DNA from: a virus
Strand: one strand, 5' to 3'
Length of the DNA: 64,000 nt
IMG/VR virus record: IMGVR_UViG_3300021135_000003
Shown here: piece by piece, positions 15,517 through 59,262 of the stretch
Position numbering within the stretch: the first letter of the stretch is position 1
How the letters are laid out: each line of letters starts with the position of its first letter
Made by a program: the position numbers and the translations under genes
The notes under the pieces: model-generated
The model's input: the letters and a program-made list of their open reading frames with translations, nothing else
The model's database searches: none
Told to the model about the DNA's origin: nothing

Positions 15517-15517
15517 T

Positions 15518-20837: not shown

Positions 20838-21014
20838 ATGGAACATGTATATGTGCGTTGCCCAATGGATGGAACACAGAATCAAAAGTTTTGTGGTCTA
20901 GTTGAACACTATAAATCAAATGGAAATATTGATGAATGTCCACATCTCCAAGAGTGTAGTGAAATTAAAAATTATGTTATCAATGAAGAAGGAAAATTAA
21001 ATGAAATTAAGTAA
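20838..21014 (+). CDS. small Cys-containing protein, 58 aa, absent from the ORF track
   Basis: MEHVYVRCPMDGTQNQKFCGLVEHY...ECPHLQECSE; AAGGAG RBS; four Cys. Confidence 0.6.
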   Translation: MEHVYVRCPMDGTQNQKFCGLVEHYKSNGNIDECPHLQECSEIKNYVINEEGKLNEIK

Positions 21015-21657
21015 AGAAACTGTAGGTCTAATTAAGAACTTTGCTGGTATCAATAGCAATTTGCTTTTGAAGGCTGGTAATAAATTGGCCACTATCTCGG
21101 CTCAGAAAAACGTAATGGCTGATGCAGTTGTTACTGAAACTTTCCCAGACTTTGGTATCTATGACCTCAATGAGTTCCTCGGTGCCATGTCTTTGTTCGA
21201 TGATCCAGAATTGACATTCAATGACAAGTGGGTTACTATTGAACAAGGTGGCAACAGTATTAAATACTTTGCAGCTGAAGCAAGCGTATTGACTGCTCCA
21301 CAAAAAGCGATTACCTTCCCAGATCCAGAAATTGAATTTAATATGAGCGCAAATATGCTCAGCATGATTCAACGTACTGCTTCTGTATTGCGTGCTTCTG
21401 ATGTATCTATCGTTGGTGATGGTTCAACTATGAGCGTAGTTGTTGGTGATAAAAAGAATGCCACTGGTAACTCATATAACTCTACTGTTGGTTCAAGTGA
21501 CAAGAAATTCAAAGTTAATTTGAAAGTAGAAAACCTAAAAATGATTCCAGGTGATTATGCTGTTAGTGTTTCCAGTAAGAAGATCTCTCGCTTCAAAGGT
21601 GCTGGTGATTTGGTTTATTATGTAGCAGTTGAGGCAGATTCATCATTCGAGTTTTAA
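21001..21657 (+). CDS. gp45: sliding clamp
   Basis: MKLSKET...KNFAGIN, FGIYDLNEFL and YYVAVE motifs. Confidence 0.96.
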   Translation: MKLSKETVGLIKNFAGINSNLLLKAGNKLATISAQKNVMADAVVTETFPDFGIYDLNEFLGAMSLFDDPELTFNDKWVTIEQGGNSIKYFAAEASVLTAPQKAITFPDPEIEFNMSANMLSMIQRTASVLRASDVSIVGDGSTMSVVVGDKKNATGNSYNSTVGSSDKKFKVNLKVENLKMIPGDYAVSVSSKKISRFKGAGDLVYYVAVEADSSFEF

Positions 21658-21658
21658 T

Positions 21659-29595: not shown

Positions 29596-29957
29596 AAGTA
29601 GCAATCAATACATGTTTCGGTGGGTTTGGTATTTCAAATGTAGCGTTTGAGAAATTGCTTGAGCGTAAGGGTATCGCATTCGATAAGGTGCCAGCAAAAT
29701 GGCCAATTCGTGGTAACGACTCAGACTATTACAAAGCTGGTAGTCCACAATCTGATGCGACATATCTAAGTGAGTATGAATTCTATGAACAACGCAATGA
29801 TCCAGATTTGATTGCAGTGATTGAAGAATTGGGTAAAGAAGCATGGGGTTTTGCAGCAGAACTAGCAATCGTTGATATTCCTGATGATGTCGAATGGCAT
29901 ATTCACGAGTACGATGGTCTTGAGCATGTAGCAGAAAATCATAGGACTTGGGGTTAA
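29592..29957 (+). CDS. conserved phage hypothetical
   Basis: KVAINTCFGGFGIS, RNDPDLIAVIEELG and EYDGLE motifs. Confidence 0.8.
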   Translation: MKVAINTCFGGFGISNVAFEKLLERKGIAFDKVPAKWPIRGNDSDYYKAGSPQSDATYLSEYEFYEQRNDPDLIAVIEELGKEAWGFAAELAIVDIPDDVEWHIHEYDGLEHVAENHRTWG

Positions 29958-31456
29958 TGATTGATGCTGTTATTCTTAGTGGTGGTCAAGATATGCCAAA
30001 CGACTACCCTAAGATACAAAGATCGCTTGGTCCATACAGGGTTGCTTCTGCTTTAGAAAAAGCAGGATACACTACATGTGTAATTGATTATATTCAGTAT
30101 CTTTCAGTAGAAGAAATTATCAATGCTTTGAAAAATGTTTTAACACCTAATACTTTATGGGTTGGTATTTCTTCTACTTTTTTCTACTCACCATTAGCAA
30201 AGAAGGTTGGTCTTTCTAGGATGTACCAAAATATATCTTATGAAAAAATTTCTAAAGTATATGAATTTATTAAAGCGAACAGTAATGCTAAGATTGTTTT
30301 TGGTGGAGCATATGCCCTTCAAGCACACGCTGATCCGATGATTGATTATTACATTGCTAGTTATGCTGATGTGACTGTTGTAGAATTAACTGATTTCCTT
30401 TCAGGTAAGAAAATATATCTTGAACATTCAACTGAGATTGATATTGGTGGAACTAAGTCTGTGTTGATTGATTCTGGTAAGTATAAAGAACCAGAAATGA
30501 ATTCATTGGAAACCTTTTGGCATAAAAAAGAATACAACATATTACCAACCGAATCATTGCCTATTGAATTTGCTAGAGGGTGTATTTTTAAATGCAAGTT
30601 TTGTAACTATCCCCTTCTTGGTAAAAAGAAAGGTACATACATTAGAGATATGTCTCAGGTTCGTGATGAGATAATTAAAGTGTGGGAAGAGAATGGAACT
30701 GATTCATTTTATATGACAGATGATACCTTCAATGATGATAATGATAAGATGGAAGAATTTCATAAGTTGTTTACATCGTTGCCGTTCAAACCTAAGTTTA
30801 GCGCATTTCTTCGACTTGATTTGATTGATAGATTCCCGCATCAAGCAGATCTTCTTTTAGAAGCTGGTTTGATTGGTAACTTTTTTGGGATTGAATCATT
30901 CAATCATAAAAGTGCTAGAGCAATTGGTAAAGGTTTGCACCCAGATAGAATTAAGAAACGTCTAAACTGGGTGAGAGAAAAATGGGATGGTAAGGTTAAT
31001 ACTGTAGTAGGATTAATTGTTGGTTTACCGTATGATGATGAGAAGTATTTTAGAGAACTTGAAACATATCTTATGTCTTCAGAATACCCTGCTCAGAGAA
31101 CTGTTATTAATCCTCTGCATATTTTTGATAGGAGCAAAGGTGTTAATCTTTATGGTTCTGAGTTTTCAGTTAACTCAGAAGTCTATGGATATAAGTTTGA
31201 TTCGAATGGTAGATGGTATCATGAAGAACAGGGTTTTGGTTTTGATGATATGATAAATGTTTCAAACTATTTTTCAGAATTGATGAGCAGTAAAAATAAA
31301 GTTAGTGGATTTGAGATGTTGACATATATGAATCTTGGTATTTCGTTGAAAGATATATTAACATACACTGAAGATGAATTAATACAACGCTATGATATCC
31401 CAAAATTAAATAATGAAAAATTGACAATGTATAAACAAATGATTGGAGCAGTATAA
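29957..31456 (+). CDS. B12-binding-domain radical SAM protein
   Basis: RGCIFKCKFC (CxxxCxxC), N-terminal LG.YRVAS.L and GISSTF, DDTFN and GIESF motifs. Confidence 0.88.
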   Translation: MIDAVILSGGQDMPNDYPKIQRSLGPYRVASALEKAGYTTCVIDYIQYLSVEEIINALKNVLTPNTLWVGISSTFFYSPLAKKVGLSRMYQNISYEKISKVYEFIKANSNAKIVFGGAYALQAHADPMIDYYIASYADVTVVELTDFLSGKKIYLEHSTEIDIGGTKSVLIDSGKYKEPEMNSLETFWHKKEYNILPTESLPIEFARGCIFKCKFCNYPLLGKKKGTYIRDMSQVRDEIIKVWEENGTDSFYMTDDTFNDDNDKMEEFHKLFTSLPFKPKFSAFLRLDLIDRFPHQADLLLEAGLIGNFFGIESFNHKSARAIGKGLHPDRIKKRLNWVREKWDGKVNTVVGLIVGLPYDDEKYFRELETYLMSSEYPAQRTVINPLHIFDRSKGVNLYGSEFSVNSEVYGYKFDSNGRWYHEEQGFGFDDMINVSNYFSELMSSKNKVSGFEMLTYMNLGISLKDILTYTEDELIQRYDIPKLNNEKLTMYKQMIGAV

Positions 31457-32634: not shown

Positions 32635-33203
32635 TGTTTATATTTGACGTAGAAACTTTGGGTGTTGAATCTAATGCTGTTGTTTTATCGGCAGCATTGC
32701 TTCACTTTGACCCAGAGAAACGTCCAACCTATCAAGACTTGCTAGACAATGCGTGCTTTGTTAAGTTGAACGCAAAAGATCAAGCAAAACGTCTTGGTAG
32801 AACTGTTGATGTGAGAACACTAGAGTGGTGGGCAAACCAACACGAATATGTTCGTAGTGTTTCTTTTGATGCAAATTCAATAGATATGTATGCAGAAGAT
32901 GCAATTAAAGAGTTACATAATTATATGAACAAATATATTAATGCAAATGGTCAAACTATGTGGGCAAGGGGTTCTCTTGATCAAATGGTAATTGATTCGC
33001 TTGCTAAAAAACTTGACATGCAACCTATTACTGGGTATAATATGTGGAGGGACGTTAGAACTGCAGTTGATTTACTCAGTGGTGGAACTAATGGTTATTG
33101 TGAAGTGAATCATCCCTTATTTGAACGAGCGCAAGTTATTAAGCACCATCCTGTTCATGACTGTGCTCTTGATGCTATGATGTTAATGTATGGAAAGAGT
33201 TAA
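32634..33203 (+). CDS. DEDDh 3'-5' exonuclease (DexA-like)
   Basis: FDVETLG, TLEWW, WARG..D, RDVRT and HHPVHD motifs. Confidence 0.85.
   Translation: MFIFDVETLGVESNAVVLSAALLHFDPEKRPTYQDLLDNACFVKLNAKDQAKRLGRTVDVRTLEWWANQHEYVRSVSFDANSIDMYAEDAIKELHNYMNKYINANGQTMWARGSLDQMVIDSLAKKLDMQPITGYNMWRDVRTAVDLLSGGTNGYCEVNHPLFERAQVIKHHPVHDCALDAMMLMYGKS
33013..33041 (+). promoter_or_regulatory. intragenic consensus sigma70 promoter upstream of gp43
   Basis: TTGACA-17 bp-TATAAT. Confidence 0.8.
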
Positions 33204-35689
33204 TGGAATTTTATACCTCAGTAAACCCTATCGGAGATCGAATCTTTGTTAGAGGTGTTGAGAATGGTAAACGCTATCAACGTAAGTTAGAGTTTAGTCC
33301 TACTCTTTATGTGACTGCCAAGAAACCCTCCAAGTGGAAGACACTGGAGGGAACATTCGTTGATGAGATTAATCCAGGCACAATCAAAGATACCAGAGAA
33401 TTTATTAAACGCTATGATGGTGTTGAAGGATTCGCTGTATATGGAAACTCAAACTATGCGTATCAATACATAAGCGATAATTATCAGCATGATATCAATT
33501 GGGATATGGAACAGATTAAAGTGTTCACGATTGATATTGAAACTTCAACAGAGAATGGTTTCCCTGATATTAAATCAGCCAATGAAGAAATTCTTCTTAT
33601 CACAGTTAAAGAACTTCAGACAAAACGTATTATTACTTTTGGAAGTAAAGCATATGTCAATCCACGTGAAGATGTAATCTATGTTAACTGTAAGAATGAA
33701 CAAAACCTACTAACCCAATTCCTAGAATTTTGGACTAAGAGCCATCCAGATGTTATCACTGGTTGGAATACTGACTTCTTTGATATGCCATATCTTATCC
33801 GTAGGATTGAGCGTGAACTTGGTGATGGCGAATCTAATAAGATGAGTCCATGGGGATATGTTAATGAACGAAAGACTTTCATTAAAGGTAATGAAGAGAT
33901 TCACTACGATATCGTTGGGATTGCTCAACTAGATTATCTTGAACTCTATAAGAAATATACATATTCTAAACAGGAAAGTTATCGTTTGGATTATATTGCT
34001 GGTGAAGAACTTGGTGACAAGAAGAAAGTAAATCCAGGAGATTCATTTAAAGATTTCTATACTAATCACTGGCAGCAATTCGTTGATTATAATATTCATG
34101 ACGTAGAGTTGGTTGATAAGTTAGAAGACAAGATGCGTCTTATCGAATTGCATTTGACCATGGCTTATAATGCCAAGATTAATTTCGAGGATGTTTATTC
34201 GCAGGTTCGCATGTGGGATACGATTATCTATAATCATCTACGTAAAAAAGGTATTGTTGTTCCTGCCAAGAGTCACTCAGGCAAAGATGCTCAATTTGAG
34301 GGTGCATATGTTAAAGATCCAATTATTGGTCTTCATAAATGGATGGCTTCTTTTGACTTGAACTCATTGTATCCGCATTTGATTATGCAGTATAACATTA
34401 GTCCTGAAACTTTGACATCGGAAAAGATTAGCGTTACTGTTGATAAACTTTTGAATCAAGAAATTGATACCACATATGTTAAGCAACGAGATCTTGCTTT
34501 GACTGCCAATGGATGGACTTATACTAAAGAGTTTAAAGGTTTCATGCCAGAGTTAATGGAACAGATGTATAAAAATCGTTCTAAGTTCAAGAAACAAATG
34601 CTTGCCATCCAACAAGAGTATGAAAAAGATAAGTCTAAGAAACAATTGCTGAAAGATATTTCTCGTTTGAATAATCTGCAGATGGCTATGAAGATTGCTT
34701 TGAACTCTGCTTATGGTGCAATGGGTAATCAGTATTTCCGTTACTTTGATATTCGTATGGCTGAGGGTATTACTACTTCTGGTCAGTTGTCTATTCGTTG
34801 GATGGCCAACAAGTTAAATGCCTTCATGAATAAAACATTGAAGACTGAAGGTAAAGATTATGTAGTTGCAATTGATACTGATTCAATCTACCTTACTCTT
34901 GAAACATTAGTTGAACAAACTTGCGCTGGCAAAACTGATGAACAGAAAATTAAATTCATGGATAAAATCTGTGAAGATGTTTTCCAACCATTCATTGATT
35001 CAGGTTACCAAGAACTAGCAGACTATATGAATGCGTATAGTCAGAAGATGCAGATGAAGCGTGAGGTTCTAGCTGACAAAGGTATCTGGACTGCCAAGAA
35101 ACGATATATTCTTAATGTGCATAATTCAGAGGGTGTTCAATATGAGAAACCTAAAATTAAAGTTATGGGTCTTGAAATGGTCAAGTCCTCTACTCCTGCA
35201 GTTATTCGTGATAAATTGCGAGATTCGATTGAGGTTATTCTTAAAGGAAATCAATCACATTTACAGAACTACATATTAGAGTATCGTAAAGAGTTTGAGA
35301 AACTTCCTGTTGAAGAGATTGCGTTTCCTCGTGGTGTTAATGGTATGAAACAATACGCTGGTTCACCTATCTATTCTAAGGGAACACCAATTCATGTTCG
35401 TGGTGCTTTATTGTTTAATCACTATACTAAGAAGATGGGTCTTGATAAAAAGTATCAACCAATTCGTGATGGTGATAAAATTCGATTTGTTTATGTTCGC
35501 AAACCAAATCCATTCCAAGAAGATGTTATTGCATTCAGTCAAGAGTTACCACCAGAGTTTGAATTGAACTCCTACATAGATTATGATAAACAATTTGAAA
35601 AGGTATTTCTCGATGCCCTACAAATTATTATTGGTTCGCTTGGTTGGAATACATCAGAACAAAGTTCATTAGAGGATTTCTTTGGATGA
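33203..35689 (+). CDS. gp43: family B DNA polymerase
   Basis: DIET, SFDLNSLYP, KIALNSAYG, DTDS and KKRY motifs; C-terminal SLEDFFG clamp-binding tail. Confidence 0.99.
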   Translation: MEFYTSVNPIGDRIFVRGVENGKRYQRKLEFSPTLYVTAKKPSKWKTLEGTFVDEINPGTIKDTREFIKRYDGVEGFAVYGNSNYAYQYISDNYQHDINWDMEQIKVFTIDIETSTENGFPDIKSANEEILLITVKELQTKRIITFGSKAYVNPREDVIYVNCKNEQNLLTQFLEFWTKSHPDVITGWNTDFFDMPYLIRRIERELGDGESNKMSPWGYVNERKTFIKGNEEIHYDIVGIAQLDYLELYKKYTYSKQESYRLDYIAGEELGDKKKVNPGDSFKDFYTNHWQQFVDYNIHDVELVDKLEDKMRLIELHLTMAYNAKINFEDVYSQVRMWDTIIYNHLRKKGIVVPAKSHSGKDAQFEGAYVKDPIIGLHKWMASFDLNSLYPHLIMQYNISPETLTSEKISVTVDKLLNQEIDTTYVKQRDLALTANGWTYTKEFKGFMPELMEQMYKNRSKFKKQMLAIQQEYEKDKSKKQLLKDISRLNNLQMAMKIALNSAYGAMGNQYFRYFDIRMAEGITTSGQLSIRWMANKLNAFMNKTLKTEGKDYVVAIDTDSIYLTLETLVEQTCAGKTDEQKIKFMDKICEDVFQPFIDSGYQELADYMNAYSQKMQMKREVLADKGIWTAKKRYILNVHNSEGVQYEKPKIKVMGLEMVKSSTPAVIRDKLRDSIEVILKGNQSHLQNYILEYRKEFEKLPVEEIAFPRGVNGMKQYAGSPIYSKGTPIHVRGALLFNHYTKKMGLDKKYQPIRDGDKIRFVYVRKPNPFQEDVIAFSQELPPEFELNSYIDYDKQFEKVFLDALQIIIGSLGWNTSEQSSLEDFFG

Positions 35690-38177: not shown

Positions 38178-38487
38178 CCATCTTGCAAAACCTTATATCC
38201 TTGTTGAGAATCGCAAAACAGGACATGATGCGATAAAGTTGACTTCTGGACCATTTCAGGGTATAATATATTCTTACGGTAAAGTTAAGTTTGAAGAGCA
38301 ACATGATGATACTTGCAAACTTAATTTTGAGTATGAAGTCCATAATAATCAAATAGAATATAACAAAGAAGAATTCGAATTCTATATTGGTGAACTTCTT
38401 CAGTTTATTATGGCAGAAGAACTACAAAGAAATAATATTACTTACACTGGCGGAATTGATGAGAATAGAAACGAAGATTCTGAGTAA
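38170..38487 (+). CDS. gp40-like protein (head vertex assembly chaperone position)
   Basis: Between uvsX and gp41 as in T4; GIIYSYGKV.F.E motif. Confidence 0.6.
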   Translation: MSDHLAKPYILVENRKTGHDAIKLTSGPFQGIIYSYGKVKFEEQHDDTCKLNFEYEVHNNQIEYNKEEFEFYIGELLQFIMAEELQRNNITYTGGIDENRNEDSE

Positions 38488-39847
38488 TCTTGTATATGAT
38501 GAGCAGTATTGTCGTAAGGTAATCCCATTCATTAGAACAGATTACTTTTCAGAAAGAAAAGAAGCGATCCTTGCCAAAGTTATTTTGGATTTCTTTACGA
38601 AGTATAATAAACCACTGACTAAAGAAATTCTATCAATTGAGGTAGGAAACCGAACTGACATTAATGACAAAGAACTTTCTGAGATTAATAGTTATGTAGA
38701 TACTATGACTCATGAGGATGTTAATGAATCATGGATGTTGGAACAAACTGAGAAGTTCTGTAAAGATAAGGCTGTCTATAATGCAATTCTACACTCGATC
38801 CGAATCATTGATGGCGGAGATAAAGTTAACACCAAAGATTCCATACCTTCTATCCTTTCTGATGCTCTTGCCATCTCTTTCGATAATCACGTTGGTCATG
38901 ATTACATCGAAGATAGTGATGCACGTTATGACTTCTATCACCGAATTGAAGAAAAGATTCCTTTCGATTTAGATATGTTTAATAAGATTACCAAAGGTGG
39001 TTTATCCAAGAAAACTTTAAACATTGTTTTGGCTGGTACTGGTGTTGGTAAATCTTTGTTTATGTGTCACGTTGCTGCTGGAGTATTAACTGCTAGTAAG
39101 AATGTTCTTTACATTACTATGGAAATGGCTGAGGAAAGAATCGCTGAGCGTATTGATGCGAACTTGTTGAATCTTACTATGGATGAGTTGAAAGTTATTG
39201 ATAAAGATATCTTTGATAATCGTATCAATAAGATCTCTGGTAAAACACAGGGTAAATTAATCGTTAAAGAATATCCAACTGCAGGTGCTCATGCTGGTCA
39301 CTTTAGAGCATTGCTTGAAGAGTTGAAGTTGAAGCGTGAGTTTCTTCCTGACATTATCTTCATTGACTATCTAAACATTTGCGCAAGTCAGCGTATGAAG
39401 CAAGGTGGAAGTATTAATTCTTATACATATATTAAGAGTATCGCTGAAGAGTTACGTGGTTTGGCAGTAGAATATAATGTTCCAATTGTTTCTGCCACGC
39501 AAACTACTCGAAGCGGATTCACAAATAGCGATCCAGGTTTGGAAGATACTTCTGAATCGTTTGGATTACCAGCCACTGCTGACCTTATGTTTGCGCTAGT
39601 ATCTAATGAAGAACTTGAACAGTTGAATCAGATTGTTGTTAAGCAGTTAAAGAATCGTTATAACGATCCAAGTTTTTACAAGAGATTCGTCATTGGTGTT
39701 GATAGAGCCAAGATGAAGTTATATGATGTTGAGGCATCTGCTCAAGTAGGTTTATCTGACTCAGGTCAAGATGATGTTCCTATGTTTGACAAAAGTGAAT
39801 TTGGAAAGCGTCAGAAAGCAGAAGGTTTCAGTGGGTTTAAGTTTTAG
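38459..39847 (+). CDS. gp41: replicative helicase
   Basis: AGTGVGKS, KEYPT, DYLNIC, SATQTTR and KQLKNRY motifs. Confidence 0.97.
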   Translation: MRIETKILSNLVYDEQYCRKVIPFIRTDYFSERKEAILAKVILDFFTKYNKPLTKEILSIEVGNRTDINDKELSEINSYVDTMTHEDVNESWMLEQTEKFCKDKAVYNAILHSIRIIDGGDKVNTKDSIPSILSDALAISFDNHVGHDYIEDSDARYDFYHRIEEKIPFDLDMFNKITKGGLSKKTLNIVLAGTGVGKSLFMCHVAAGVLTASKNVLYITMEMAEERIAERIDANLLNLTMDELKVIDKDIFDNRINKISGKTQGKLIVKEYPTAGAHAGHFRALLEELKLKREFLPDIIFIDYLNICASQRMKQGGSINSYTYIKSIAEELRGLAVEYNVPIVSATQTTRSGFTNSDPGLEDTSESFGLPATADLMFALVSNEELEQLNQIVVKQLKNRYNDPSFYKRFVIGVDRAKMKLYDVEASAQVGLSDSGQDDVPMFDKSEFGKRQKAEGFSGFKF

Positions 39848-39856: not shown

Positions 39857-41173
39857 ATGGTAAAAGTAATTGTAGCTGAACAGAAACACAATTGTGAAGA
39901 TCTTCTTGGTAAGTTTGTTGACGAATCACATTATGATCATCTTATCGAAGAAGATACTGATGTTTATATGCCACCACAATTTGGTGAAGATCCAATCTCA
40001 GAGAAACGAATTGTATTAAAGTTTAGGAAAAACTATTTTAGTAAAGAACAACAAGATGCCGCATATGTCGGACTTAGAGAAGCAGCGATTCGCACAGAGA
40101 ATCGTGGACTTGCTTCTGGTATCAAAGATGGCATTCTTGCCACAACTGAAGGTCGCGAGTGGGTCACAAACTACCAACAGGAAATGATGGATGCGTTGCT
40201 AAAGAATCGAAACTCTGCTCTTGATGAAGAAGATGTTATTGATGTTATTCGTGCCAAGTATCCTACTGAAACTGATAAGCGTATGGCAGGTGGTAGTGGT
40301 AAAAACAACGTATGGGTTATCTCACGTTTCCGTGGAACTAAGTTTGATTTTGAAGCATGGCTAGATACTATCAAACCACTTGGTCGTCAGAATCGTGCTG
40401 AGGCATGTGAAGATGTTATGGAAATGATTAGTACCACTACCTATGGTACTGCAGTTAATTCTGGTATCGCTGGTTGGTTCGATCGTTATCCTCGCATTCC
40501 TTATGGTCGTGCCACTTCCTATACTCGTGACAACTTTGATAAGTTTGTAATGTCATATCCATTCCTGCAGAATCTTGCTGAAGGATTTAAAAATCTTTTA
40601 CCTCAACGCTATGCTGCACAAATGAAAGCAGCAAACAAACTAGATCCAAGGTTCTTAGTTCCAGGAACACCATTCACAACAGTAACTGTTAATAAAACAT
40701 TTAGAACTGCGGCACATAGAGATGCTGGTGATTTGAATGAGGGTTTATCTAATCTGTTAACATTATCCAATGATGGTAATTACACTGGTGGATATTTGAT
40801 TGCTCCTGAGTATCGAATTGCAGTTAATCCACGTCCAGGAGATTTGCTTCTAATCAATAATCACGAAGTTATGCATGGCAATACACCTATTGTTTGCGCA
40901 GAAGGTTCTGAGCGTATATCATTGGTTGTGTATTTCCGTGAGAAAATGTTAGAACTTGGTTCTTTTGAATATGAAGACTGTCGTTATAATTTTGTTGAAC
41001 ATCGTAGACGTAATCACGAGCATCCAATGTGGCAAAAACTTTGGAATGGTGTATCAGAATCTATGTGGACTAGTCAAGAATGGTATGATTACTGCGAAGA
41101 AAAACTTGGTCGTGAGGAATTAATGAAATATCATCCAGAAGCAAATTCTTCTTCACTTGAGGATTTCTTTTAA
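39857..41173 (+). CDS. TET/JBP-family 2OG-Fe(II) DNA base dioxygenase
   Basis: PFTTVTVN..FRTAAHRDAGD (HxD), DLLL...HGNTPI and RISLVVYFRE motifs; located in the modification cluster. Confidence 0.8.
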   Translation: MVKVIVAEQKHNCEDLLGKFVDESHYDHLIEEDTDVYMPPQFGEDPISEKRIVLKFRKNYFSKEQQDAAYVGLREAAIRTENRGLASGIKDGILATTEGREWVTNYQQEMMDALLKNRNSALDEEDVIDVIRAKYPTETDKRMAGGSGKNNVWVISRFRGTKFDFEAWLDTIKPLGRQNRAEACEDVMEMISTTTYGTAVNSGIAGWFDRYPRIPYGRATSYTRDNFDKFVMSYPFLQNLAEGFKNLLPQRYAAQMKAANKLDPRFLVPGTPFTTVTVNKTFRTAAHRDAGDLNEGLSNLLTLSNDGNYTGGYLIAPEYRIAVNPRPGDLLLINNHEVMHGNTPIVCAEGSERISLVVYFREKMLELGSFEYEDCRYNFVEHRRRNHEHPMWQKLWNGVSESMWTSQEWYDYCEEKLGREELMKYHPEANSSSLEDFF

Positions 41174-41877
41174 TGTGTAGCGTTATTGGTGCTTTGATTC
41201 AGAATCCTACTGAAAAGGATTTTGAATCTATCCGTAAAGTATTTCTTGAGTCAAAGATTCGAGGAATGCACGCAACTGGTTTATCTTATATTAAAGATAA
41301 TAAGATTATTACATTTAAAGAAGCAGTTCCTGCAGATAAATTTATTCATTTAGATAATTTAGAGGAGATGGTCAATGACGATGGTAATCTTTACCTTATT
41401 GGTCACTGTAGATATTCTACTAGCGATTTATTGTATAATCAGCCGATAGCAAGCGAAACCCATTCTATTGTTCATAATGGAGTTATCACTCAAGAACTTC
41501 CAGAGAACTGGAGTAAGATATTTCATTATCCTTGTGAAACAAAGAATGATTCTGAATTAGTTTTACATTCTGATAATGCTCTTGGTGAATATCCAGATGC
41601 ATCTATGGCAGTTTGTGAGTTGTCACTAAAAAAAGAACTTACTGTTTTTAGAAATGGTAAACGTCCATTATATTTGACTTCTTTAGTAAATGGAGTTATA
41701 ATTACTTCTACTGCAGATATTCCTAAACGTGCAGGTATTAGAATGCCAGCAGTAGAAGTGCCAATGAATACTTACCTCACGTTTGATTCAAATATGACAA
41801 TGAATGTTAATCTTGTTAAGACTAACAAACCAGATTTACAAAAGGTAAACTATGAGACTGAAGAAATATCCAACTGA
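41173..41877 (+). CDS. class II (Ntn) glutamine amidotransferase
   Basis: N-terminal Cys2, RG.HATG, GHCRYST, NQP, HNGVI and DSE motifs. Confidence 0.88.
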   Translation: MCSVIGALIQNPTEKDFESIRKVFLESKIRGMHATGLSYIKDNKIITFKEAVPADKFIHLDNLEEMVNDDGNLYLIGHCRYSTSDLLYNQPIASETHSIVHNGVITQELPENWSKIFHYPCETKNDSELVLHSDNALGEYPDASMAVCELSLKKELTVFRNGKRPLYLTSLVNGVIITSTADIPKRAGIRMPAVEVPMNTYLTFDSNMTMNVNLVKTNKPDLQKVNYETEEISN

Positions 41878-42733
41878 TAAATTTACTTACGGAATGGAGA
41901 TAGAGTGGGGTGATGTGCCTCGCTCTTTTTCAATTCCAGAACATCTCGGAACTTGGGAACACTCAGAACGAGATATTATTAACTTAAGAGAGCCATATCA
42001 ATATGTCTGCGCTGACCCACTTGGTGAATCTCCTCCAGTCGGTGGGGAAATTAATACTAAACCGACTAAGACTTGGGAAGAGCAGGTTGATCGCTACTTT
42101 GAACTCAAACAGTTATTTGAGAAGGAAGGACACCCACCTACTGTTGGTGCTACTGCTCATACTCATATTCATTGCCGTGTACCGAATCTCCGAAATGATA
42201 TCAATGCTCTGAAGCGTTTGACAAAGTATATTAAAGAAAACCAACACCAAGCAGTTGAACACGTCTATGGTTACTTTGAACATAATCAAATGAAAGGTGC
42301 CAAAGGCGCAAAAATGTATTTGAAGTTTGATGGTGGTCGAACTCTGCCTGACTATATGGCTGATAACATTATTAATCTAGCGACTGACTTTGATTCATTC
42401 ATTAAGATGCACGCTGCAGGTAAAGATGGAGTATCAATGGGTCGCCCATTCCGCTACGCTATTAATATGTACGCACTGAAGCATATCGATACGGTAGAGT
42501 TTAGATTGTTCCGTGGTACAATGGATCGTACGGAACTTGAATCGTGTTTCCGATTTGTTCAAGACTTTCTTGATGCTGCGTTGAATACTGGTGAATCAGT
42601 AGTACAATTAATTTCAAATAATAATTATAAATTCCCTCCAATGATTTGGGATCTTCATCAGTTTATTGGTTGGGAGAAAACAAAACATCCAGAAGATCGT
42701 GGAGAAAAAGTAAGAACATATGTTGAAGTATAA
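41852..42733 (+). CDS. amidoligase (COOH-NH2 ligase, Amidoligase_2-like)
   Basis: TYGMEIE, GGEIN, HTHIH and RYAIN...TVEFR.F.GT motifs. Confidence 0.82.
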   Translation: MRLKKYPTDKFTYGMEIEWGDVPRSFSIPEHLGTWEHSERDIINLREPYQYVCADPLGESPPVGGEINTKPTKTWEEQVDRYFELKQLFEKEGHPPTVGATAHTHIHCRVPNLRNDINALKRLTKYIKENQHQAVEHVYGYFEHNQMKGAKGAKMYLKFDGGRTLPDYMADNIINLATDFDSFIKMHAAGKDGVSMGRPFRYAINMYALKHIDTVEFRLFRGTMDRTELESCFRFVQDFLDAALNTGESVVQLISNNNYKFPPMIWDLHQFIGWEKTKHPEDRGEKVRTYVEV

Positions 42734-43226
42734 AGTAATAGAAGATTGTGTATCAAGAGATTTGCAAAACAAATATTTGGAGATCTCAGAAGGTATACAT
42801 TGGACCTATAATAAAACTTGTATACATCCTTTAGATATTCCAATTCAGAATGAAACTACATTTGATGTTGGACAACTAACATGTAGAGTTCCAGAACACG
42901 ATTATAATTTGTTCCTCCCTCTTCTAGATCATTTTGAACAATACTCTAAAATTAATCGCATAAAATATAATTTGTTATGGAGATGTTCTGAAACAAATAA
43001 TAGACATACAAGTTTACATAAAGATGGTGATGACCAATGTATGAGTGCAGTATATTATGTTAATGATTCTGATGGAGATACCATCATAATTGATGGTGAT
43101 GATGAATATAGAATTAAACCAAAGAAGGGATCTATTCTAATATTTCCTGCGCATCTAATTCATGCCTCATCTAACCCATCAAATGCGTTTGAGAGAATTT
43201 GTATAAATTTGGTAGTAACAAAATGA
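42720..43226 (+). CDS. 2OG-Fe(II) oxygenase
   Basis: HKD, YYVNDSDGDT, HASSNP and RICIN motifs. Confidence 0.85.
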   Translation: MLKYKVIEDCVSRDLQNKYLEISEGIHWTYNKTCIHPLDIPIQNETTFDVGQLTCRVPEHDYNLFLPLLDHFEQYSKINRIKYNLLWRCSETNNRHTSLHKDGDDQCMSAVYYVNDSDGDTIIIDGDDEYRIKPKKGSILIFPAHLIHASSNPSNAFERICINLVVTK

Positions 43227-43774
43227 AATTACTAAATTGCCCACGTGCGGATTTTATCGCAGCAATAACTACAGACAAAGAAGATAACTTTGCTAAGACG
43301 TTTGTTGCCAAAGCAGATATGCAAGACCAATGGGATTATTGTATTGGCGCATTCGATGGTAATGAATTAACTGCTGCAATTATCACCACAATATCAAAGA
43401 CCAAACCTCATGTTGCAAACCTTCAACTGTTACATACATTTGCAAAACATAGAGGTAAAGGTTCAGCTCGATTACTTTGTGAAGATTCATTGAAGCGAGC
43501 AAGAGCCACTGGTGCTACATACTTCAGAGTATCTTCCGAGAAGACGGCAGTTGGTTTCTATGAACGATTGGGTTTTAAGTTTTGGGGTACTCAAAAGAGT
43601 GGTTGCCAATTATCCATATTCAGGATAAATGGAGATAATTATTCAGAAGCTGATTACGACTACTCCGATACAATTATCAACAAGGCTGTTAATCGCAAAG
43701 GTAAAGGTGGCTGTGTAACTCTGTTTAGTCTTGCAGAGGATCAGAAACAACTTGACTTTCATTCATTTTTGTAG
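43223..43774 (+). CDS. GNAT acetyltransferase
   Basis: HRGKGSAR acetyl-CoA loop and AVGFYERLGF motif. Confidence 0.88.
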   Translation: MKLLNCPRADFIAAITTDKEDNFAKTFVAKADMQDQWDYCIGAFDGNELTAAIITTISKTKPHVANLQLLHTFAKHRGKGSARLLCEDSLKRARATGATYFRVSSEKTAVGFYERLGFKFWGTQKSGCQLSIFRINGDNYSEADYDYSDTIINKAVNRKGKGGCVTLFSLAEDQKQLDFHSFL

Positions 43775-43780
43775 TATAAT
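43752..43780 (+). promoter_or_regulatory. sigma70-type promoter
   Basis: TTGACT-17 bp-TATAAT. Confidence 0.8.
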
Positions 43781-43799
43781 ATAATTTTGGGAACACACT

Positions 43800-44120
43800 A
43801 TGACACACTTGAGAGAAGAAAATTTGGCAGTTGTTACAAGAAGAATTGCTGAGGATGCATGGGTAACTAATCTTGATGGAACAAAATCAAGAGCAGTATC
43901 TTGGTGCAAATGCTGTAGGGTTCATAAACCTTTAAGTGCATTTTACTTAAAATCAAAGAGTACTAGAAAACATAAAAATGATGTTCGAGGATATTGTTGC
44001 ATTTGTTTTGATGAACAAAACAAAAAAGCAAAAGAAATTCGTGAAGAACGAAATGCAGTCAAACAATTGAATATTCTGATCAATGAATTAAAGATAGAAT
44101 TTGAGACTGCGAATCAGTAA
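43800..44120 (+). CDS. zinc-finger hypothetical protein
   Basis: CKCC..KPLSAFY...CCIC pattern. Confidence 0.7.
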   Translation: MTHLREENLAVVTRRIAEDAWVTNLDGTKSRAVSWCKCCRVHKPLSAFYLKSKSTRKHKNDVRGYCCICFDEQNKKAKEIREERNAVKQLNILINELKIEFETANQ

Positions 44121-44683
44121 TGAATTTCGAACATATTTTTCCATCAGTTATAGGTTATGAGATTAATAAAGATTTAACAGATAACATTTTGCTTATTGCA
44201 AAAGAATATCTTTCTGATGATTCTAAGATAACCTATGAATGGAATTATAAAAACACATATGGTAATATCTTAATAGATGATAAATTAAATTTTGTATATG
44301 AGAAGATAGCTGAACTATCAAATACATATTTGATAACCTCTAATATTAAACCACCAGAAAAATTAGAAATACAACTTTTCTTTAGTGAAATATACGGAAA
44401 CGACACTCATGTTAAACACTCTCATCCAGGAGCATTACTTTCTGGATTATTTTATTTGACTGTTCCAGATGATGCTGCTCCAATTATTTTTTATGATACG
44501 AGCCCACATTATGATTATATTCCGTATAATGCATTAAATCCATCTGATGACCGTAGGCAATATATTATAAATCCAAAAGAAGGTATGGTTCTAATATGGA
44601 ATTCTTGGTACCAGCATGAAGTTCCAAAATCAAATAGTATTAAACCAAGAATTACAGCAGTGTTTAATGTTGCTAGAAAATAA
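44120..44683 (+). CDS. putative 2OG-Fe(II) oxygenase (TIGR02466-like)
   Basis: HSHPGALLSGLFY, P.EG....W.S...HEV and RITAVFN motifs. Confidence 0.82.
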   Translation: MNFEHIFPSVIGYEINKDLTDNILLIAKEYLSDDSKITYEWNYKNTYGNILIDDKLNFVYEKIAELSNTYLITSNIKPPEKLEIQLFFSEIYGNDTHVKHSHPGALLSGLFYLTVPDDAAPIIFYDTSPHYDYIPYNALNPSDDRRQYIINPKEGMVLIWNSWYQHEVPKSNSIKPRITAVFNVARK

Positions 44684-45699
44684 TGGATTACAGACAACCT
44701 CAAAATAATAGAGAAGCGTTCATTCGCTGGTACGCATGGTCATTGAAGTATGATGACTGTGATCCAGCTGTTTGGTGCACGAACTATCTCAATAAGCGTT
44801 ACGAGCATAATGATGAACAACGTCTTTGGCTCGCTTGGCTTTACGGTAACACTTATCAACTACCAACTGCGTGGGTATTGATGAATGAATTTCCTGATTA
44901 TGAATTAGCAACAGTTGATAGAATTACGCAGTGGAACTCAACAAATTATAAACGATTACGTTACCAAACTGATACCAAGTGGAACAAGGGGCATCTCCCT
45001 GCCATGTTTGCTTCATATCAGCAATTTATTGGTAACAAAACTCAACGAGAAAGAATGGAAGGGTTTTATGGAGACAATGAAGAGACAAACTTTGATAACC
45101 TGTGGGAAAGCGTTAAGTCTGGGCTGCATAAGTTTGGTCGCTATTCCACTTGGTTTTATCTTCAGCATCTTAAGCATACCGCTGGTATTCTTATCAGCCC
45201 TACTAGTCTCATGCTGGATGATTATGATGGCTCTCGGTCTCATCGTAATGGATTATTATGCGCCCTCGGCAGACATTACGATATGGATAGAAAACTCACT
45301 GAACAAGAGTATGCAACTCTTGAGTCAGAAGCCAGATCTATTCTCATCGAAACCAAAGATAGATTCCCAGATTTGGAAACGCAAATAGATTTTTTTACAA
45401 TGGAAACCTGTCTGTGTTCGTTTAAGAAAATCTTTAGAGCACATCATGGACGTTACCTTGGTTACTACTTAGATCGTCAGGCTGAAGAGATTATTAAAGC
45501 AGAGGGTGATGGTTGGTATGGTATTGATTGGGATGTTCTGTGGCAAGCACGTGAAGAAACTATTGACTTACGTCTAGATCACAAAAGAGGAATCGATAAA
45601 GAAAAGTTTCCTGCATTTATAAATTCAGGTAAAATAGAAAACTTGGATTGGATGTTTGATGATGAAGAACCTATGTTAATTGGATTGGAGAATTTTTAA
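44683..45699 (+). CDS. amino acid:DNA transferase-like protein (aGPT-PPlase clade 2, HhH glycosylase-like fold)
   Basis: DCDP, EQRLWLAWLY, KFGRYSTWFYL (HhH-like) and METCLCSFKK motifs; near the P-loop kinase. Confidence 0.75.
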   Translation: MDYRQPQNNREAFIRWYAWSLKYDDCDPAVWCTNYLNKRYEHNDEQRLWLAWLYGNTYQLPTAWVLMNEFPDYELATVDRITQWNSTNYKRLRYQTDTKWNKGHLPAMFASYQQFIGNKTQRERMEGFYGDNEETNFDNLWESVKSGLHKFGRYSTWFYLQHLKHTAGILISPTSLMLDDYDGSRSHRNGLLCALGRHYDMDRKLTEQEYATLESEARSILIETKDRFPDLETQIDFFTMETCLCSFKKIFRAHHGRYLGYYLDRQAEEIIKAEGDGWYGIDWDVLWQAREETIDLRLDHKRGIDKEKFPAFINSGKIENLDWMFDDEEPMLIGLENF

Positions 45700-46151
45700 T
45701 GGCTATTACTAAAGGTCAAATGACTGGACTTACTGGTGCTATGTATGAAGATATGAATCCTGCTAGTGTTTCAATTTCAAATACTGGTGCTATTACTGGA
45801 ACTATTATTGGAGCAGCAGGTAGTACGATTACTACTGGAACAGGAATAAGTTCTATCTCAATTCGAACAAGTGCTGATGAAATCTTTGATAGATATTCTT
45901 TAAATGAGTTTCTTGTTGAGCATCGTGTTCAAGAATTTGAACTTATGAAACTCCGTGAAACCACTGTTGACTATGCTGATGTTATTAAAAATAATCTAGC
46001 AAAGACTGCTTCTAAAGAAATTATCAAGAAAATGACCTTCACAAAGAAACATGAGATTGATAGTGATACTCATTCATTCCGTGGACGTGTTTGGGTATTT
46101 ACGAAAGATGAACTAAACAAAATGATTGAGGAGATCAGAAATGGCATTTGA
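45699..46151 (+). CDS. hypothetical protein with Thr/Gly/Ser-rich N-terminus
   Basis: Coupled ORF with GGAG RBS. Confidence 0.7.
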   Translation: MAITKGQMTGLTGAMYEDMNPASVSISNTGAITGTIIGAAGSTITTGTGISSISIRTSADEIFDRYSLNEFLVEHRVQEFELMKLRETTVDYADVIKNNLAKTASKEIIKKMTFTKKHEIDSDTHSFRGRVWVFTKDELNKMIEEIRNGI

Positions 46152-46749
46152 AGAACGTATCGGCGCAACTGATATTATTACATTCGAAAGAACTACCATG
46201 GAAACAAAAGAACGAAAGATAGTTGCTGTCGGTGGATCTCCTGGAACTGGAAAGACTACGTTATTCCGTAAATATATGGAAGATAAACAGTGGATCGGAG
46301 TTGAGCCAGCAAAATTAGTATCAACAATGTATAATACCGAACGAGATCTTTATATCCTTGGTAAATACGAAGAGGGTGAAACCTTTGCTGGAACCGATCG
46401 CCTTTCTATGGCTGTTCAACCACCTCTTCAAGAATGGGTCGCTTCCCATAACTGCAATATCCTTTTCGAGGGAGATCGGGTTTTCAACCAATCATTCCTA
46501 GAGTTCTGCATGGGTCTCCCAAATACCAAGCTAGAAGTGGTATTTCTAAAGGCTCCCAAAGATATTTTAGAACAACGCTATAAAGATCGTGGATCTGACC
46601 AGTCAGAACAATTCCTAAGAGGAAGAGAAACTAAATATAGTAACTTGATGTCTAATTTTGAACTTATGCCATATATTACTGAGTTTGTAAACACTAACTT
46701 AGAGGAGCAGGGGAAGGTTCTTGCATTTTTGGAGAAGCAGTTTAGTTAA
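46141..46749 (+). CDS. P-loop nucleotide/DNA kinase (5-hmU DNA kinase-like role predicted)
   Basis: GGSPGTGKT, LGKY....FAGTDRLSMAVQP, FEGDR and R..RGS.Q motifs. Confidence 0.78.
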   Translation: MAFEERIGATDIITFERTTMETKERKIVAVGGSPGTGKTTLFRKYMEDKQWIGVEPAKLVSTMYNTERDLYILGKYEEGETFAGTDRLSMAVQPPLQEWVASHNCNILFEGDRVFNQSFLEFCMGLPNTKLEVVFLKAPKDILEQRYKDRGSDQSEQFLRGRETKYSNLMSNFELMPYITEFVNTNLEEQGKVLAFLEKQFS

Positions 46750-46769: not shown

Positions 46770-47465
46770 ATGTATCACCTAGAAAACGCCAATTATGACT
46801 TTATGGAATTACTGAATTTCTATTCAGTACCTTTCCGAGCGAAATTCATACCCTCAAAAATATGGAAAGATTTAGATAACTACCGAAACGACTCAGTTGG
46901 ACTAGGTAATTATGTTAAGAAGTGGCGCACTAAAATAGAATGGAGAAAAGAGCCATCTAAAGCCACAAGATTTAAAAGAGGGGTTAGTATTGCAGGCGAA
47001 TACGATATCGAGAAACGCCAGTGCTGTCTTATAATCTATACAGATTATTTTAATACATTCCCCTTTACTGAAAATGGTTGGAGAAATTTTAAGTTCCGAT
47101 TAATAACATGCCTTCAGCATGAGATTATCCACTACATGCAATATGATAGACGTGACGATCAATGGAGCCACTACGTAGTTCCATATAAAAAAGCCCATAA
47201 CAAAAGAAAGAATGACGAGAGACAATATCTCTCTGAGTTCGATGAGATCCAAGCATATGCTCATTGTATATTAATGGATTTTAAATCTAGACGTCCAAAT
47301 ATGGATATTGAAACCCTCCTCAATAGATGTAAAACCCATCGTGATTCTAGAACTTTAACATACTTCTTAAAGACATTTGATTATGATTTTAAGAATAACG
47401 CAGCAATACCTAAATTAATGCAGCAAATAGTTAAATGGGAACGTAAATATAATCGAATTACTTAA
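46770..47465 (+). CDS. putative zincin-like metallopeptidase
   Basis: QHEIIHYMQ plus a downstream EIQAYA. Confidence 0.6.
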   Translation: MYHLENANYDFMELLNFYSVPFRAKFIPSKIWKDLDNYRNDSVGLGNYVKKWRTKIEWRKEPSKATRFKRGVSIAGEYDIEKRQCCLIIYTDYFNTFPFTENGWRNFKFRLITCLQHEIIHYMQYDRRDDQWSHYVVPYKKAHNKRKNDERQYLSEFDEIQAYAHCILMDFKSRRPNMDIETLLNRCKTHRDSRTLTYFLKTFDYDFKNNAAIPKLMQQIVKWERKYNRIT

Positions 47466-58230: not shown

Positions 58231-59262
58231 ATGCTCTATATTGATAACAAATACGCACAAATCCTTGGCACTCGTCTAAGGAACTTCAAACAAAAGAAAG
58301 ACTACCTCTGGAATTACAGTTGTCCAGTGTGTGGAGATTCTTCGAAGAACAAACTCAAGGCTCGTGGTTATATTTACCGTGGTGAGCAAGAGTTATTTGT
58401 TAAGTGTCACAACTGCGGTTATGGTACTAACCTTGGTAATCTAATTAAGTATGTGGATGCGAAACTTTATGATGAATATGTTTTGGAACGCTACAAAGCT
58501 GGCGCATCAAAACACCATGATCACAAAGACGTTAAACAAACAAGCGTCATCTTAGAAACTCCCAAAGAAGAATTACTTGAGGATGATATTCTCTCAAGTT
58601 TATCACGATTAGATAAACTACCATTGAATCATCCAGCAGTTGAGTATTTAATTAATAGAAAGATTCCAAAAGATAAATGGAGTCTACTATATTTTGCTCC
58701 AAAGTTTAAAGCGTTTACTAATTCAGTAACTGCTAAATTCCAAGAGCCAATTAAGGATGAACATCCTAGAATGATTATACCTTTCTTTACACCAGCAGGT
58801 AAATGTTTTGCTTTTCAAGGCAGAGCATATGGTAAAGAAGAACCTAAGTATTATACCATTAAAGTTGATGAAACACAGGAGAAGATTTATGGACTTGACA
58901 GGATTGACTACTCTAAAAGAATATATGTTGTTGAGGGACCAATTGATTCGTTATTCCTTCCAAATGCAATTGCTGTATCAGGAGCAAGTTTTGATACCCC
59001 TACTATTCGGCAGCTATTGGCTAATGCAACGATAGTAATGGACAATGAACCAAGAAGCAAAGAGATAACTAAGTTTCTTGAAAAAAATATTGAAGCAGGT
59101 TATTCTGTTTGTATGTTCCCTGAGCATATTGAACAGAAAGATATTAATGATATGATTTTACATGGTAATATGACAGCCGATGAGATTATAGATACGATAA
59201 ATACAAATACCTTCAAAGGAATGGAAGCAAAATTGAAATTTAGTACATGGAAGAAAATATGA
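58231..59262 (+). CDS. gp61: DNA primase
   Basis: CPVCGDS...CHNCG zinc finger, FQGR, VEGPIDSLF, DNEPR and KDINDM motifs. Confidence 0.97.
   Translation: MLYIDNKYAQILGTRLRNFKQKKDYLWNYSCPVCGDSSKNKLKARGYIYRGEQELFVKCHNCGYGTNLGNLIKYVDAKLYDEYVLERYKAGASKHHDHKDVKQTSVILETPKEELLEDDILSSLSRLDKLPLNHPAVEYLINRKIPKDKWSLLYFAPKFKAFTNSVTAKFQEPIKDEHPRMIIPFFTPAGKCFAFQGRAYGKEEPKYYTIKVDETQEKIYGLDRIDYSKRIYVVEGPIDSLFLPNAIAVSGASFDTPTIRQLLANATIVMDNEPRSKEITKFLEKNIEAGYSVCMFPEHIEQKDINDMILHGNMTADEIIDTINTNTFKGMEAKLKFSTWKKI

Follow-up and report, generated by a model that had tools for sequence, protein, structure and literature searches.

A putative post-replicative thymidine hypermodification cassette in a T4-like phage and the apparent pairing of its glutamine amidotransferase with a DNA transferase

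The virus record IMGVR_UViG_3300021135_000003 (IMG/VR) was analyzed over a stretch of 64,000 nucleotides, hereafter called the window, in which a gene cluster at positions 39857 to 46749 encodes a TET/JBP-family dioxygenase (TET), a stand-alone class-II glutamine amidotransferase of the N-terminal nucleophile (Ntn) type (GATase), an amidoligase, a GNAT acyltransferase, an amino acid:DNA transferase family protein (AADT, or aGPT-Pplase2) and a P-loop kinase. The cluster is probably a post-replicative thymidine hypermodification cassette of a T4-like myovirus, following the route proposed below. On the basis of co-occurrence, natural fusions and a complex model, its GATase appears to serve the AADT and not the amidoligase. 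The cassette is a member of a published and biochemically unsolved class, and an earlier note on this DNA, made from the letters alone, was correct in its general reading but assigned the GATase to the wrong partner. What is new here is the assignment of the GATase to the AADT, the distinction between conserved and optional cassette parts, the swaps with glycosyltransferases, and the clamp-type tails on TET and AADT.

Probable pairing of the GATase with the AADT

The GATase matched Pfam family GATase_6 (E 1.2e-7, 32.3 bits against a cut-off of 27). Its sequence starts with MCSVIG, and residues C2, R80, H101-N102-G103 and N125-D126-E128 were invariant among 19 homologues. The AADT matched family ADDT (PF18724; E 3.8e-22, 79.6 bits against a cut-off of 26.2), and its closest counterparts among cultured phages, at about 28% identity, were the AADTs of ViI-like phages. 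It is the predicted acceptor subunit, which would swap the phosphate of 5-phosphomethyl-deoxyuridine (5-phosphomethyl-dU) for glutamine-derived ammonia.

About 290 IMG/VR relatives each were found for TET and for AADT. The GATase and AADT genes occurred together in 84 of the 84 loci in which the AADT belonged to this clade and the upstream DNA was long enough, and no GATase without an AADT was seen among loci with at least 5 kb of downstream DNA. Many of the 84 loci were devoid of a glutamine synthetase-like (GS-like) amidoligase. The kinase gene, located two genes downstream of the AADT gene in the window, was likewise present in all AADT-type cassettes.

A search for longer AADT relatives returned five natural GATase-AADT fusion proteins of 611 to 646 aa, with an N-terminal GATase_6/7 and a C-terminal ADDT domain. 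One of them, starting with MCGIAG, aligned with the window GATase at 28% identity (3e-22) and with the window AADT at 40% (2e-62), and a PDB sequence search gave a weak GlmS match from residue 1. Two fusion contigs (L234:8001-9932 and L235:8001-9929) belonged to PolA-type phages in which HMUD1 and HMUDK_hel kinases directly follow the fusion, with a ThyA-like gene near. Neither TET, Amidoligase_2 nor GNAT was called among the fusion-gene neighbours, several of which had no family, and the GATase-AADT pair therefore looks like a self-sufficient module. The arrangement on these contigs may be a minimal version of the glutamine-dependent amination module, in which 5-hydroxymethyluracil (hmU, 5hmU) is made before replication.

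The AADT, the amidoligase and the GATase were also folded together, the GATase being considered as the partner. This complex model scored 0.85, the best of three controls 0.00, passing a mark that 58 of 80 solved complexes and 2 of 110 mismatched pairs attained; runs shared at least 77% of contacts and the pLDDT confidence of the partner was at least 84. All confident GATase contacts in the three-chain model were with the AADT, and a control in which the AADT had been exchanged, with the amidoligase left in place, scored 0.00. On the GATase side, the modelled interface involved residues 1, 28-33, 81-83 and 103-104, which is the face bearing the glutaminase site. A PDB sequence search with the AADT found no relative of solved structure, which makes it improbable that the high score reflects recall of a known complex. 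The model supports binding between GATase and AADT as a prediction. PDB sequence searches with the amidoligase, the GATase, the HExxH protein described below and the AADT gave nothing useful otherwise.

These data bear directly on a reading that follows the order of events in the earlier note: the AADT would append a free amino acid (e.g. Ser, Gly or Glu), the amidoligase would amidate its carboxylate with ammonia fed by the GATase, and the GNAT would acetylate the amine. The GATase and amidoligase genes are adjacent in the window, and the Pfam description of Amidoligase_2 mentions conserved neighbourhoods with GATase-like proteins. Amino acids or putrescine are what all characterized AADTs transfer, and the enzyme of ViI, among whose relatives the nearest cultured counterparts of the window AADT are found, is a serine transferase (PMC8989533). 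Against this order stand about 26 bounded cassettes that combine GATase, AADT and kinase in the absence of a GS-like amidoligase, the fusions in phages without an Amidoligase_2 call among the neighbours, and the contacts of the GATase in the model together with the loss of score once the AADT was replaced. The order is consequently judged unlikely, and the ammonia is more plausibly destined for the AADT.

Another possible explanation is that the Ntn protein is a hydrolase (a gamma-glutamyl or peptide amidohydrolase of EgtC type) trimming a glutamine- or glutamate-containing group put on DNA by the AADT or the amidoligase. In both kinds of enzyme, a glutamyl moiety is bound by the residues that are conserved here (Cys2, Arg, Asn-Gly and Asp), and Ntn 'GATase-like' peptidases are partners of Amidoligase_2. 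However, the GATase precedes the acceptor domain in the fusions, as it does in GlmS, PurF and other true class-II amidotransferases, and the modelled active-site face is buried on the AADT instead of being open to DNA, so that a hydrolase seems quite unlikely here.

Likely source of the hydroxymethylated base and proposed route

The TET protein matched Pfam family Tet_JBP (PF12851; E 1.5e-24, 86.5 bits against a cut-off of 34.9), and its iron triad HxD...H and 2-oxoglutarate (2OG)-binding Arg (H287, D289, H340 and R353) were invariant in 18 homologues. The earlier note regarded a grouping with 2OG families that do not act on nucleic acids as an outcome that would speak against its reading. The fold grouped with DNA-base dioxygenases: when an AlphaFold2 model (pLDDT 70.8) was compared with the PDB by Foldseek, the top 26 matches were CcTet, TET2, NgTET1 and CMD1 (E 1e-7 to 1.5e-3), and FTO and AlkB ranked below them.

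Five complete relatives (CheckV 100% for all five, IMG/VR direct terminal repeats for four), with TETs 61-86% identical to that of the window, were searched for other sources of modified bases. All five had ThyX and TET, and neither a C5-methyltransferase (PF00145) nor a ThyA-like enzyme (PF00303) was found in them; they therefore would incorporate ordinary T during replication and have no other route to hmU or 5-methylcytosine (5mC). The earlier note saw neither a C5-methyltransferase nor a dUMP hydroxymethylase in the window; tblastn with one phage C5-methyltransferase and two phage ThyA-like proteins gave a best E of only 0.06 there. In situ conversion of T to hmU was proposed by Lee et al. 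in 2021 (PMC8989533), and phage clade C enzymes were reported as T-dioxygenases in vivo and in vitro by O'Toole et al. in 2026 (PMC13229309). Taken together, the window TET most likely oxidizes thymine already present in phage DNA to 5hmU, as the earlier note had held.

It is worth noting that thyX is missing from its usual place in the window (59259-59414), between the gene at 58231-59262 and nrdA (59399-61210). G001, one of the complete relatives, carries a full-length ThyX gene at this position, where about 550 bp have no counterpart in the window. The window phage may depend on dTMP synthesis by its host.

The kinase matched family Ploopntkinase3 (PF18751; E 8.6e-7, 29.1 bits against a cut-off of 27), with the Walker A motif GGSPGTGKTT, and its true start is likely Met25 at 46198. 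Families HMUD1 (PF18748) and HMUD2 (PF18747) did not match it at E <=0.01, a ViI-like phage kinase matching HMUD2 at 6e-138, and tblastn of HMUD1, HMUD2 and HMUDK_hel proteins against the window gave nothing significant. Homologues of this kinase were found in Cr30 and Melnitz close to their TET genes. The proposal of the earlier note that the kinase and the AADT would act on hmU is supported, for the kinase by its gene context.

Cultured Caulobacter phage Cr30 (L002, KF301602.1), which is T4-like, carries in the region 9001-17894 a related TET (43%), an AADT (ADDT 1.3e-52) and a kinase of the same type (37%). The same 9 kb hold a weak TET-associated glycosyltransferase (TAGT)-like protein, a dATP/dGTP diphosphohydrolase-like gene and an inositol-1-phosphate synthase, without a GATase. 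Cr30 would offer a tractable model for TET-initiated hypermodification. In Methylophilales phage Melnitz-1 (L162, 2466-6546), an HhaI-like C5-methyltransferase, a TET and a kinase related to that of the window (33%) are encoded side by side, a gene set that looks like a cytosine version of the pathway.

Such a gene set raises the question of whether the window TET acts on 5mC, as do clades A and B of Burke et al. (2021), the pathway then decorating cytosine. Neither the Pfam family nor the fold separates T from 5mC enzymes, and related Melnitz phages pair a C5-methyltransferase with TET and a similar kinase. Nevertheless, no C5-methyltransferase was found in the five complete relatives or by tblastn in the window, characterized AADTs act on hmU (PMC8989533) and published enzymes of this gene context oxidize T (PMC13229309). 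A cytosine target is accordingly very improbable.

The amidoligase of the window matched Amidoligase_2 (PF12224) with E 0.011 and 16.1 bits, below the cut-off of 22, while 14 of its 14 aligned homologues matched the family (best 7.5e-9). Columns E16, E18, H105, H107, R201, E216 and R218 were invariant, in line with the acidic, His and Arg residues expected of such an enzyme. The protein was conserved at 57-96% identity within cassettes of the window type and occurred in only part of the AADT-type cassettes, mostly alongside the GNAT; amidoligase and GNAT are an optional pair of these cassettes. The GNAT matched Acetyltransf_10 (E 1.5e-11, 44.8 bits against a cut-off of 23.6) and contains the acyl-CoA motif HRGKGSA. 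Its true start is likely Met9 at 43223, because homologues align from residue 9. N-acetylation by this protein, already suggested in the earlier note, is plausible, as another GNAT, PaMx11 gp48, acetylates 5-aminomethyl-dU (5-NmdU; PMC8989533).

The route would start with hydroxylation of thymine in phage DNA by the TET, yielding 5hmU, a step proposed because of the family, the activity published for this gene context and the want of another hmU or 5mC source. The PF18751 kinase would then phosphorylate 5hmU, as its context suggests. In a third step, the Ntn glutaminase and the AADT would behave as one glutamine-dependent enzyme: ammonia would be freed at the Cys2 site facing the AADT, which would use it to displace the phosphate and generate 5-aminomethyl-dU. 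Finally, the ATP-dependent amidoligase and the GNAT would acylate or acetylate the amine, giving an amide-bearing base. The amidoligase would perhaps use an amino acid; the glutamate left by the glutaminase is one candidate, offered as a guess. Sibling cassettes of type A (see below) would end at an acetylated aminomethyl base like that of PaMx11, and the product of the window type would carry an acyl or aminoacyl group in addition.

It can be argued that the base is not new and that the cassette makes 5-acetylaminomethyl-dU, the PaMx11 base, by another route, the amidoligase serving another purpose or giving a minor side product. The acetylation of 5-NmdU by gp48 (PMC8989533) and the composition of the commonest sibling cassette, which has only GATase, GNAT-like protein, AADT and kinase in this respect, are in agreement with this view. 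The conservation of the amidoligase within the window type, with its invariant catalytic-type residues, argues for a real extra step and makes an already known base rather unlikely.

Clamp-type tails and the ParB-like gene of relatives

The C-termini of three proteins of the window were similar: gp43 DNA polymerase ends with ...SSLEDFFG, TET with ...SSLEDFF and AADT with ...GLENF. No other product of the 109 plus-strand ORFs with a length of 60 aa or more had the ending [STGN]-L-[DE]-x-F followed by zero to two residues. The tails were retained by almost all homologues; for TET, the form S/T-L-E/D-x-F-F was still seen in proteins with as little as 46% identity. The GNAT ends with ...QLDFHSFL, akin to a clamp-type tail, and similar tails were seen in its homologues. 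No such tail was found on the GATase, the amidoligase, the conserved 150-aa protein or the HExxH protein, nor on AADTs of phages that are not T4-like.

In T4 and RB69, gp43 binds the gp45 clamp through a C-terminal tail of this kind, as do the late transcription factors gp33 and gp55. Because of their polymerase-like tails, TET, AADT and probably GNAT may be brought to new DNA by gp45. Such tails suggest how post-replicative enzymes find newly made DNA.

The tails also bear on the possibility that the cluster acts off DNA, making a small molecule or modifying RNA or protein. GATases, amidoligases, GNATs and 2OG oxygenases are common in metabolite pathways, and cyanophage-like genomes carry many 2OG oxygenases. 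The cassette, however, sits between replication genes and its tails are polymerase-like; moreover, all characterized members of the TET_JBP and ADDT families known to us act on DNA. A role away from DNA is for these reasons extremely improbable.

Close relatives of the phage, whose TETs are 80-89% identical to that of the window, have a ParB-like gene in the cassette (L011:6179-7552, L085:8710-10026, L091:8715-10001 and L015:13538-14824). In the window, its slot is occupied by the gene of a Cys-rich 106-aa protein and by a 2OG oxygenase gene. The ParB-like protein (430-457 aa), which only the comparison of cassettes brought to light, combines a ParB/Noc-like domain (PDB profile E 7e-5) with an N-terminus of GIY-YIG-like type; Pfam ParB_N was matched by 4 of 13 members, with 0.0014 as the best value. 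It evolves fast, with 27% identity between two phages whose TETs are both 87% identical to that of the window. This protein may correspond to the ParB-type activator of the literature or to a homing-endonuclease-like element, and both could be true. A search of the five complete relatives with PF02195 gave no match, including in G001, whose cassette lacks the ParB-like gene, and such a search would probably miss so divergent a protein.

A more specific proposal, which we regard as tentative, is that the product is an undescribed 5-(acylaminomethyl)uracil with its nitrogen coming from glutamine through a new kind of amidotransferase, the GATase docked on the AADT, and that TET, AADT and GNAT are carried along freshly replicated DNA by gp45 via their tails, this clamp replacing in the window phage the ParB-type clamp on which related dioxygenases depend.

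Several points weigh against the proposed route and its extension. Only 64 kb of the roughly 165-kb genome lies in the window. Relatives of this TET context described in the literature depended on a ParB partner to act on double-stranded DNA, and the ParB-like protein of the close relatives had no match in the window. The kinase falls outside the characterized 5-hmdU DNA kinase families HMUD1 and HMUD2, its substrate being deduced from context, and ammonia is used by no characterized AADT (PMC8989533). The glutamine-site residues of the GATase would fit a gamma-glutamyl hydrolase too. In cassettes without a GS-like amidoligase, a weak GNAT-like protein fills its slot; in these T4-like phages, every GATase thus has at least one candidate amide-forming enzyme beside it, and only the fusion-bearing phages show a GATase with none. 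Finally, the calibration of the complex score is only rough for three chains with custom alignments.

Cassette variation, gene layout and relation to known systems

The gp43 polymerase of the window is about 55% identical to cyanomyovirus polymerases, in agreement with a T4-like myovirus. UvsX and gp41 are encoded directly upstream of the cassette, and gp45, gp44, gp62 and RegA farther upstream (Table 1). Ten plus-strand ORFs were found between 39857 and 46749, their stops and starts overlapping or abutting; the cassette genes are translationally coupled and directly follow gp41. The coupled cluster described in the earlier note was thus recovered with all its named ORFs, to which two further small genes (43800-44120 and 45699-46151) and, just beyond its right end, the conserved HExxH gene (46770-47465) can be added. 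A Pfam scan of about 30 window ORFs, using profile searches of the kind suggested in the earlier note, gave matches to Tet_JBP, GATase_6, GNAT, ADDT, Ploopntkinase3 and two 2OG oxygenase families. No match to the cluster emerged when 50,697 phage records were searched by megablast, relatives being detectable at the protein level only.

Table 1. Features of the cassette and of replication genes in the window
Feature	Coordinates	Strand	Remarks
gp45 sliding clamp	21001..21657	+	gp45-slide_C 2.8e-10; proposed docking platform for tails
gp43 DNA polymerase	33203..35689	+	C-terminal tail ...SSLEDFFG
gp41 helicase (DnaB_C/gp41)	38387-39847		Upstream gene of cassette
TET/JBP-family (5mYOX) Fe(II)/2OG dioxygenase, 438 aa	39857..41173	+	Pfam Tet_JBP; predicted thymine C5-methyl hydroxylase on DNA (T to 5hmU)
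TET C-terminal tail SSLEDFF	41150..41170	+	Identical to heptapeptide near gp43 end
Stand-alone class-II (Ntn) GATase, 234 aa	41173..41877	+	GATase_6; predicted glutaminase subunit of AADT
GS-like amidoligase (Amidoligase_2 family), 293 aa	41852..42733	+	Family by homologue matches; optional tailoring enzyme
Small 2OG-Fe(II) oxygenase, 168 aa	42720..43226	+	2OG-FeII_Oxy_3 8e-7
GNAT acyltransferase	43199..43774	+	Acetyltransf_10; predicted N-acetylation of appended amine
Cys-rich 106-aa protein	43800..44120	+	In slot of close relatives' ParB-like gene
Small 2OG-FeII_Oxy_5 oxygenase, 187 aa	44120..44683	+	2OG-FeII_Oxy_5 9.4e-18
AADT (aGPT-Pplase2), 338 aa	44683..45699	+	ADDT match; ends ...GLENF
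Conserved 150-aa protein	45699..46151	+	Variable Gly/Thr/Ser-rich N-terminus, conserved C-terminal domain of about 95 aa
P-loop kinase, family PF18751	46126..46749	+	Ploopntkinase3; predicted 5hmU-DNA kinase
HExxH protein, 231 aa	46770..47465	+	Possible zincin or SprT-like; right border of cassette

The composition of the cassette was compared across 83 loci bounded by TET and the HExxH gene. The set conserved in AADT-type cassettes consisted of TET, GATase, AADT and kinase. Type A, the commonest sibling cassette (about 26 loci), has a GATase, a weak GNAT-like protein, an AADT, a 150-aa protein and a kinase. Type B, to which the window belongs, has a GATase, an amidoligase, a GNAT, a variable gene, an AADT, sometimes a B12-radical-SAM protein, mostly the 150-aa protein, and a kinase. 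In type B', a divergent amidoligase and a low-molecular-weight phosphatase-like protein are found between the GATase and the AADT, followed by the kinase, and type F includes an AADT, an AADT-like protein and a kinase. Co-conservation of the cluster, which the earlier note took as a test, was therefore borne out for the conserved set; amidoligase and GNAT define a sub-type, and the two small oxygenases are sporadic.

In other siblings (L022:11320-12669, L077:11306-12103 and L053:11314-12770), gp41, TET and the HExxH gene were kept and the kinase/AADT cassette was swapped for a GT1 glycosyltransferase (type C), a TET-associated glycosyltransferase (type D; PF20691, 1e-19) or two genes without family (type E). 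Type D suggests a base-J-like sugar on hmU. Since AADT was absent throughout a complete genome with a type C cassette, this is a replacement and not a relocation. The cassette is a swappable slot between gp41/TET and the conserved HExxH gene, and the exchange of amine, glycosyltransferase and other routes shows one phage lineage diversifying its DNA chemistry.

The two small 2OG oxygenases and the 106-aa gene were nearly private to the window and are sporadic insertions. The oxygenase at 42720..43226 had a homologue in one other locus only (L005) and is probably not part of the core pathway; that at 44120..44683 had only distant relatives elsewhere (26-29%), at a different cassette position. 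Both oxygenases, which the earlier note had included, should be dropped from the pathway. No Pfam family was found above cut-off for the 106-aa protein, the lone match (FBA_1, 20.9 bits for a cut-off of 21.1) being judged to be due to chance, and its homologues were restricted to a few loci (L013, L095, L134, L130 and L133). The 150-aa protein matched no Pfam family either; its gene was present in most AADT cassettes and directly followed TET in the glycosyltransferase-type loci L036 and L029.

The HExxH gene accompanied TET in all cassette types and in 22 of 22 further loci with enough upstream DNA. Residues H117, E118, H121 and E159 of its product were invariant (HExxH...E pattern), which ruled out its candidacy as a ParB-like activator. 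No clear fold match was obtained with its AlphaFold2 model (pLDDT 88.8): the best Foldseek match, an HExxH 2OG-oxygenase domain (8s5f), was weak (E 0.02, TM 0.36) and the best VIA-align hit (Z 5.8) was on a helical part. Pfam gave weak SprT-like matches in 3 of 16 members, Atlas returned unnamed phage clusters only, and tblastn against cultured phages zero matches.

Two other genes of the window deserve mention. A tryptophan-halogenase-like FAD enzyme (PF04820, 5e-98) is encoded at 21629-23128, between the gp45 clamp and gp44 clamp-loader genes. The product of 29948-31456, a radical SAM protein of 502 aa encoded about 13 kb upstream of the AADT, could act as an additional tailoring enzyme. It shares 47% identity with a B12-binding radical SAM enzyme that some relatives (e.g. 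L007 and L009) encode within the cassette, where its gene separates AADT from the 150-aa gene.

The pathway was put forward as a candidate new one in the earlier note, which overstated the case: the gene combination is already published as a metavirome observation (PMC8989533, PMC13229309). Lee et al. reported metavirome contigs without dUMP hydroxymethylase, in which TET_JBP lies beside aGPT-Pplase2 and a 5-hmdU kinase; the contigs also encode an amidoligase and a glutamine amidotransferase, neither of which was given a function (PMC8989533). O'Toole et al. described a ParB-dependent subclass 'consistently linked' with GATases, P-loop kinases and AADTs (PMC13229309), and their preprint names PF18751, PF18724 and PF13522 (10.1101/2025.08.14.668559). 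Hypermodified thymines shield phage DNA from restriction and other nucleases, and their pathways are a source of DNA-labelling enzymes. For this class, co-occurrence, fusions and the complex model now assign the GATase to the AADT and give a testable claim, namely a glutamine-dependent amination of phosphorylated 5hmU in DNA.

The metavirome 5mYOX clusters (sequences 22-25 in Fig. 2 of PMC8989533; clade C1/'E', ParB-dependent, in PMC13229309) have the same adjacent PF12851, PF18751, PF18724 and PF13522 genes as the window, together with amidoligase and GNAT. Like the window in the searches described above, they lack a nearby C5-methyltransferase or dUMP hydroxymethylase, and T-dioxygenase activity was shown for representatives. 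They differ in that the window has no ParB-like gene, although its close relatives have one in the cassette, and in that both papers leave GATase and amidoligase without function, whereas the present analysis assigns the GATase to the AADT.

The 5-AcNmdU pathway of Pseudomonas phage PaMx11 (gp46 AADT, gp47 FAD lyase, gp48 GNAT and gp49 kinase; PMC8989533) shares the succession of kinase, AADT, primary amine (5-NmdU) and acetylation by a GNAT. In PaMx11, 5hmU is derived from hmdUTP and the amine is obtained via glycine and the FAD lyase; in the window, hmU would be made from T in DNA, the amine is proposed to come directly from glutamine, and there is an additional amidoligase. Salmonella phage ViI and Pseudomonas phage M6 (5-NeOmdU and 5-NedU; PMC5889632, PMC8989533) follow the same logic of a kinase and then an AADT. 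They differ by kinases of HMUD1/HMUD2 type, amino-acid donors and tailoring by pyridoxal phosphate (PLP) or radical-SAM enzymes, and have no TET, GATase or amidoligase.

With GlmS, PurF and AsnB, all class-II Ntn amidotransferases, the window GATase shares the N-terminal Cys and the Arg, Asn-Gly and Asp sites, as well as a glutaminase placed N-terminal to, or docked on, an acceptor domain. The acceptor in the window would be a DNA-bound phosphomethyl-uracil held by the AADT domain, and we know of no characterized class-II amidotransferase with a DNA-bound acceptor on such a domain. Base J (JBP1/2 and a glucosyltransferase) and the systems with TET-associated glycosyltransferases have in common with the route proposed for the window the conversion of T in DNA to 5hmU followed by decoration. 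The likeness extends to siblings of the window, in whose corresponding slot GT1 or TAGT genes are found, while the window itself has the kinase/AADT route and no glycosylation.

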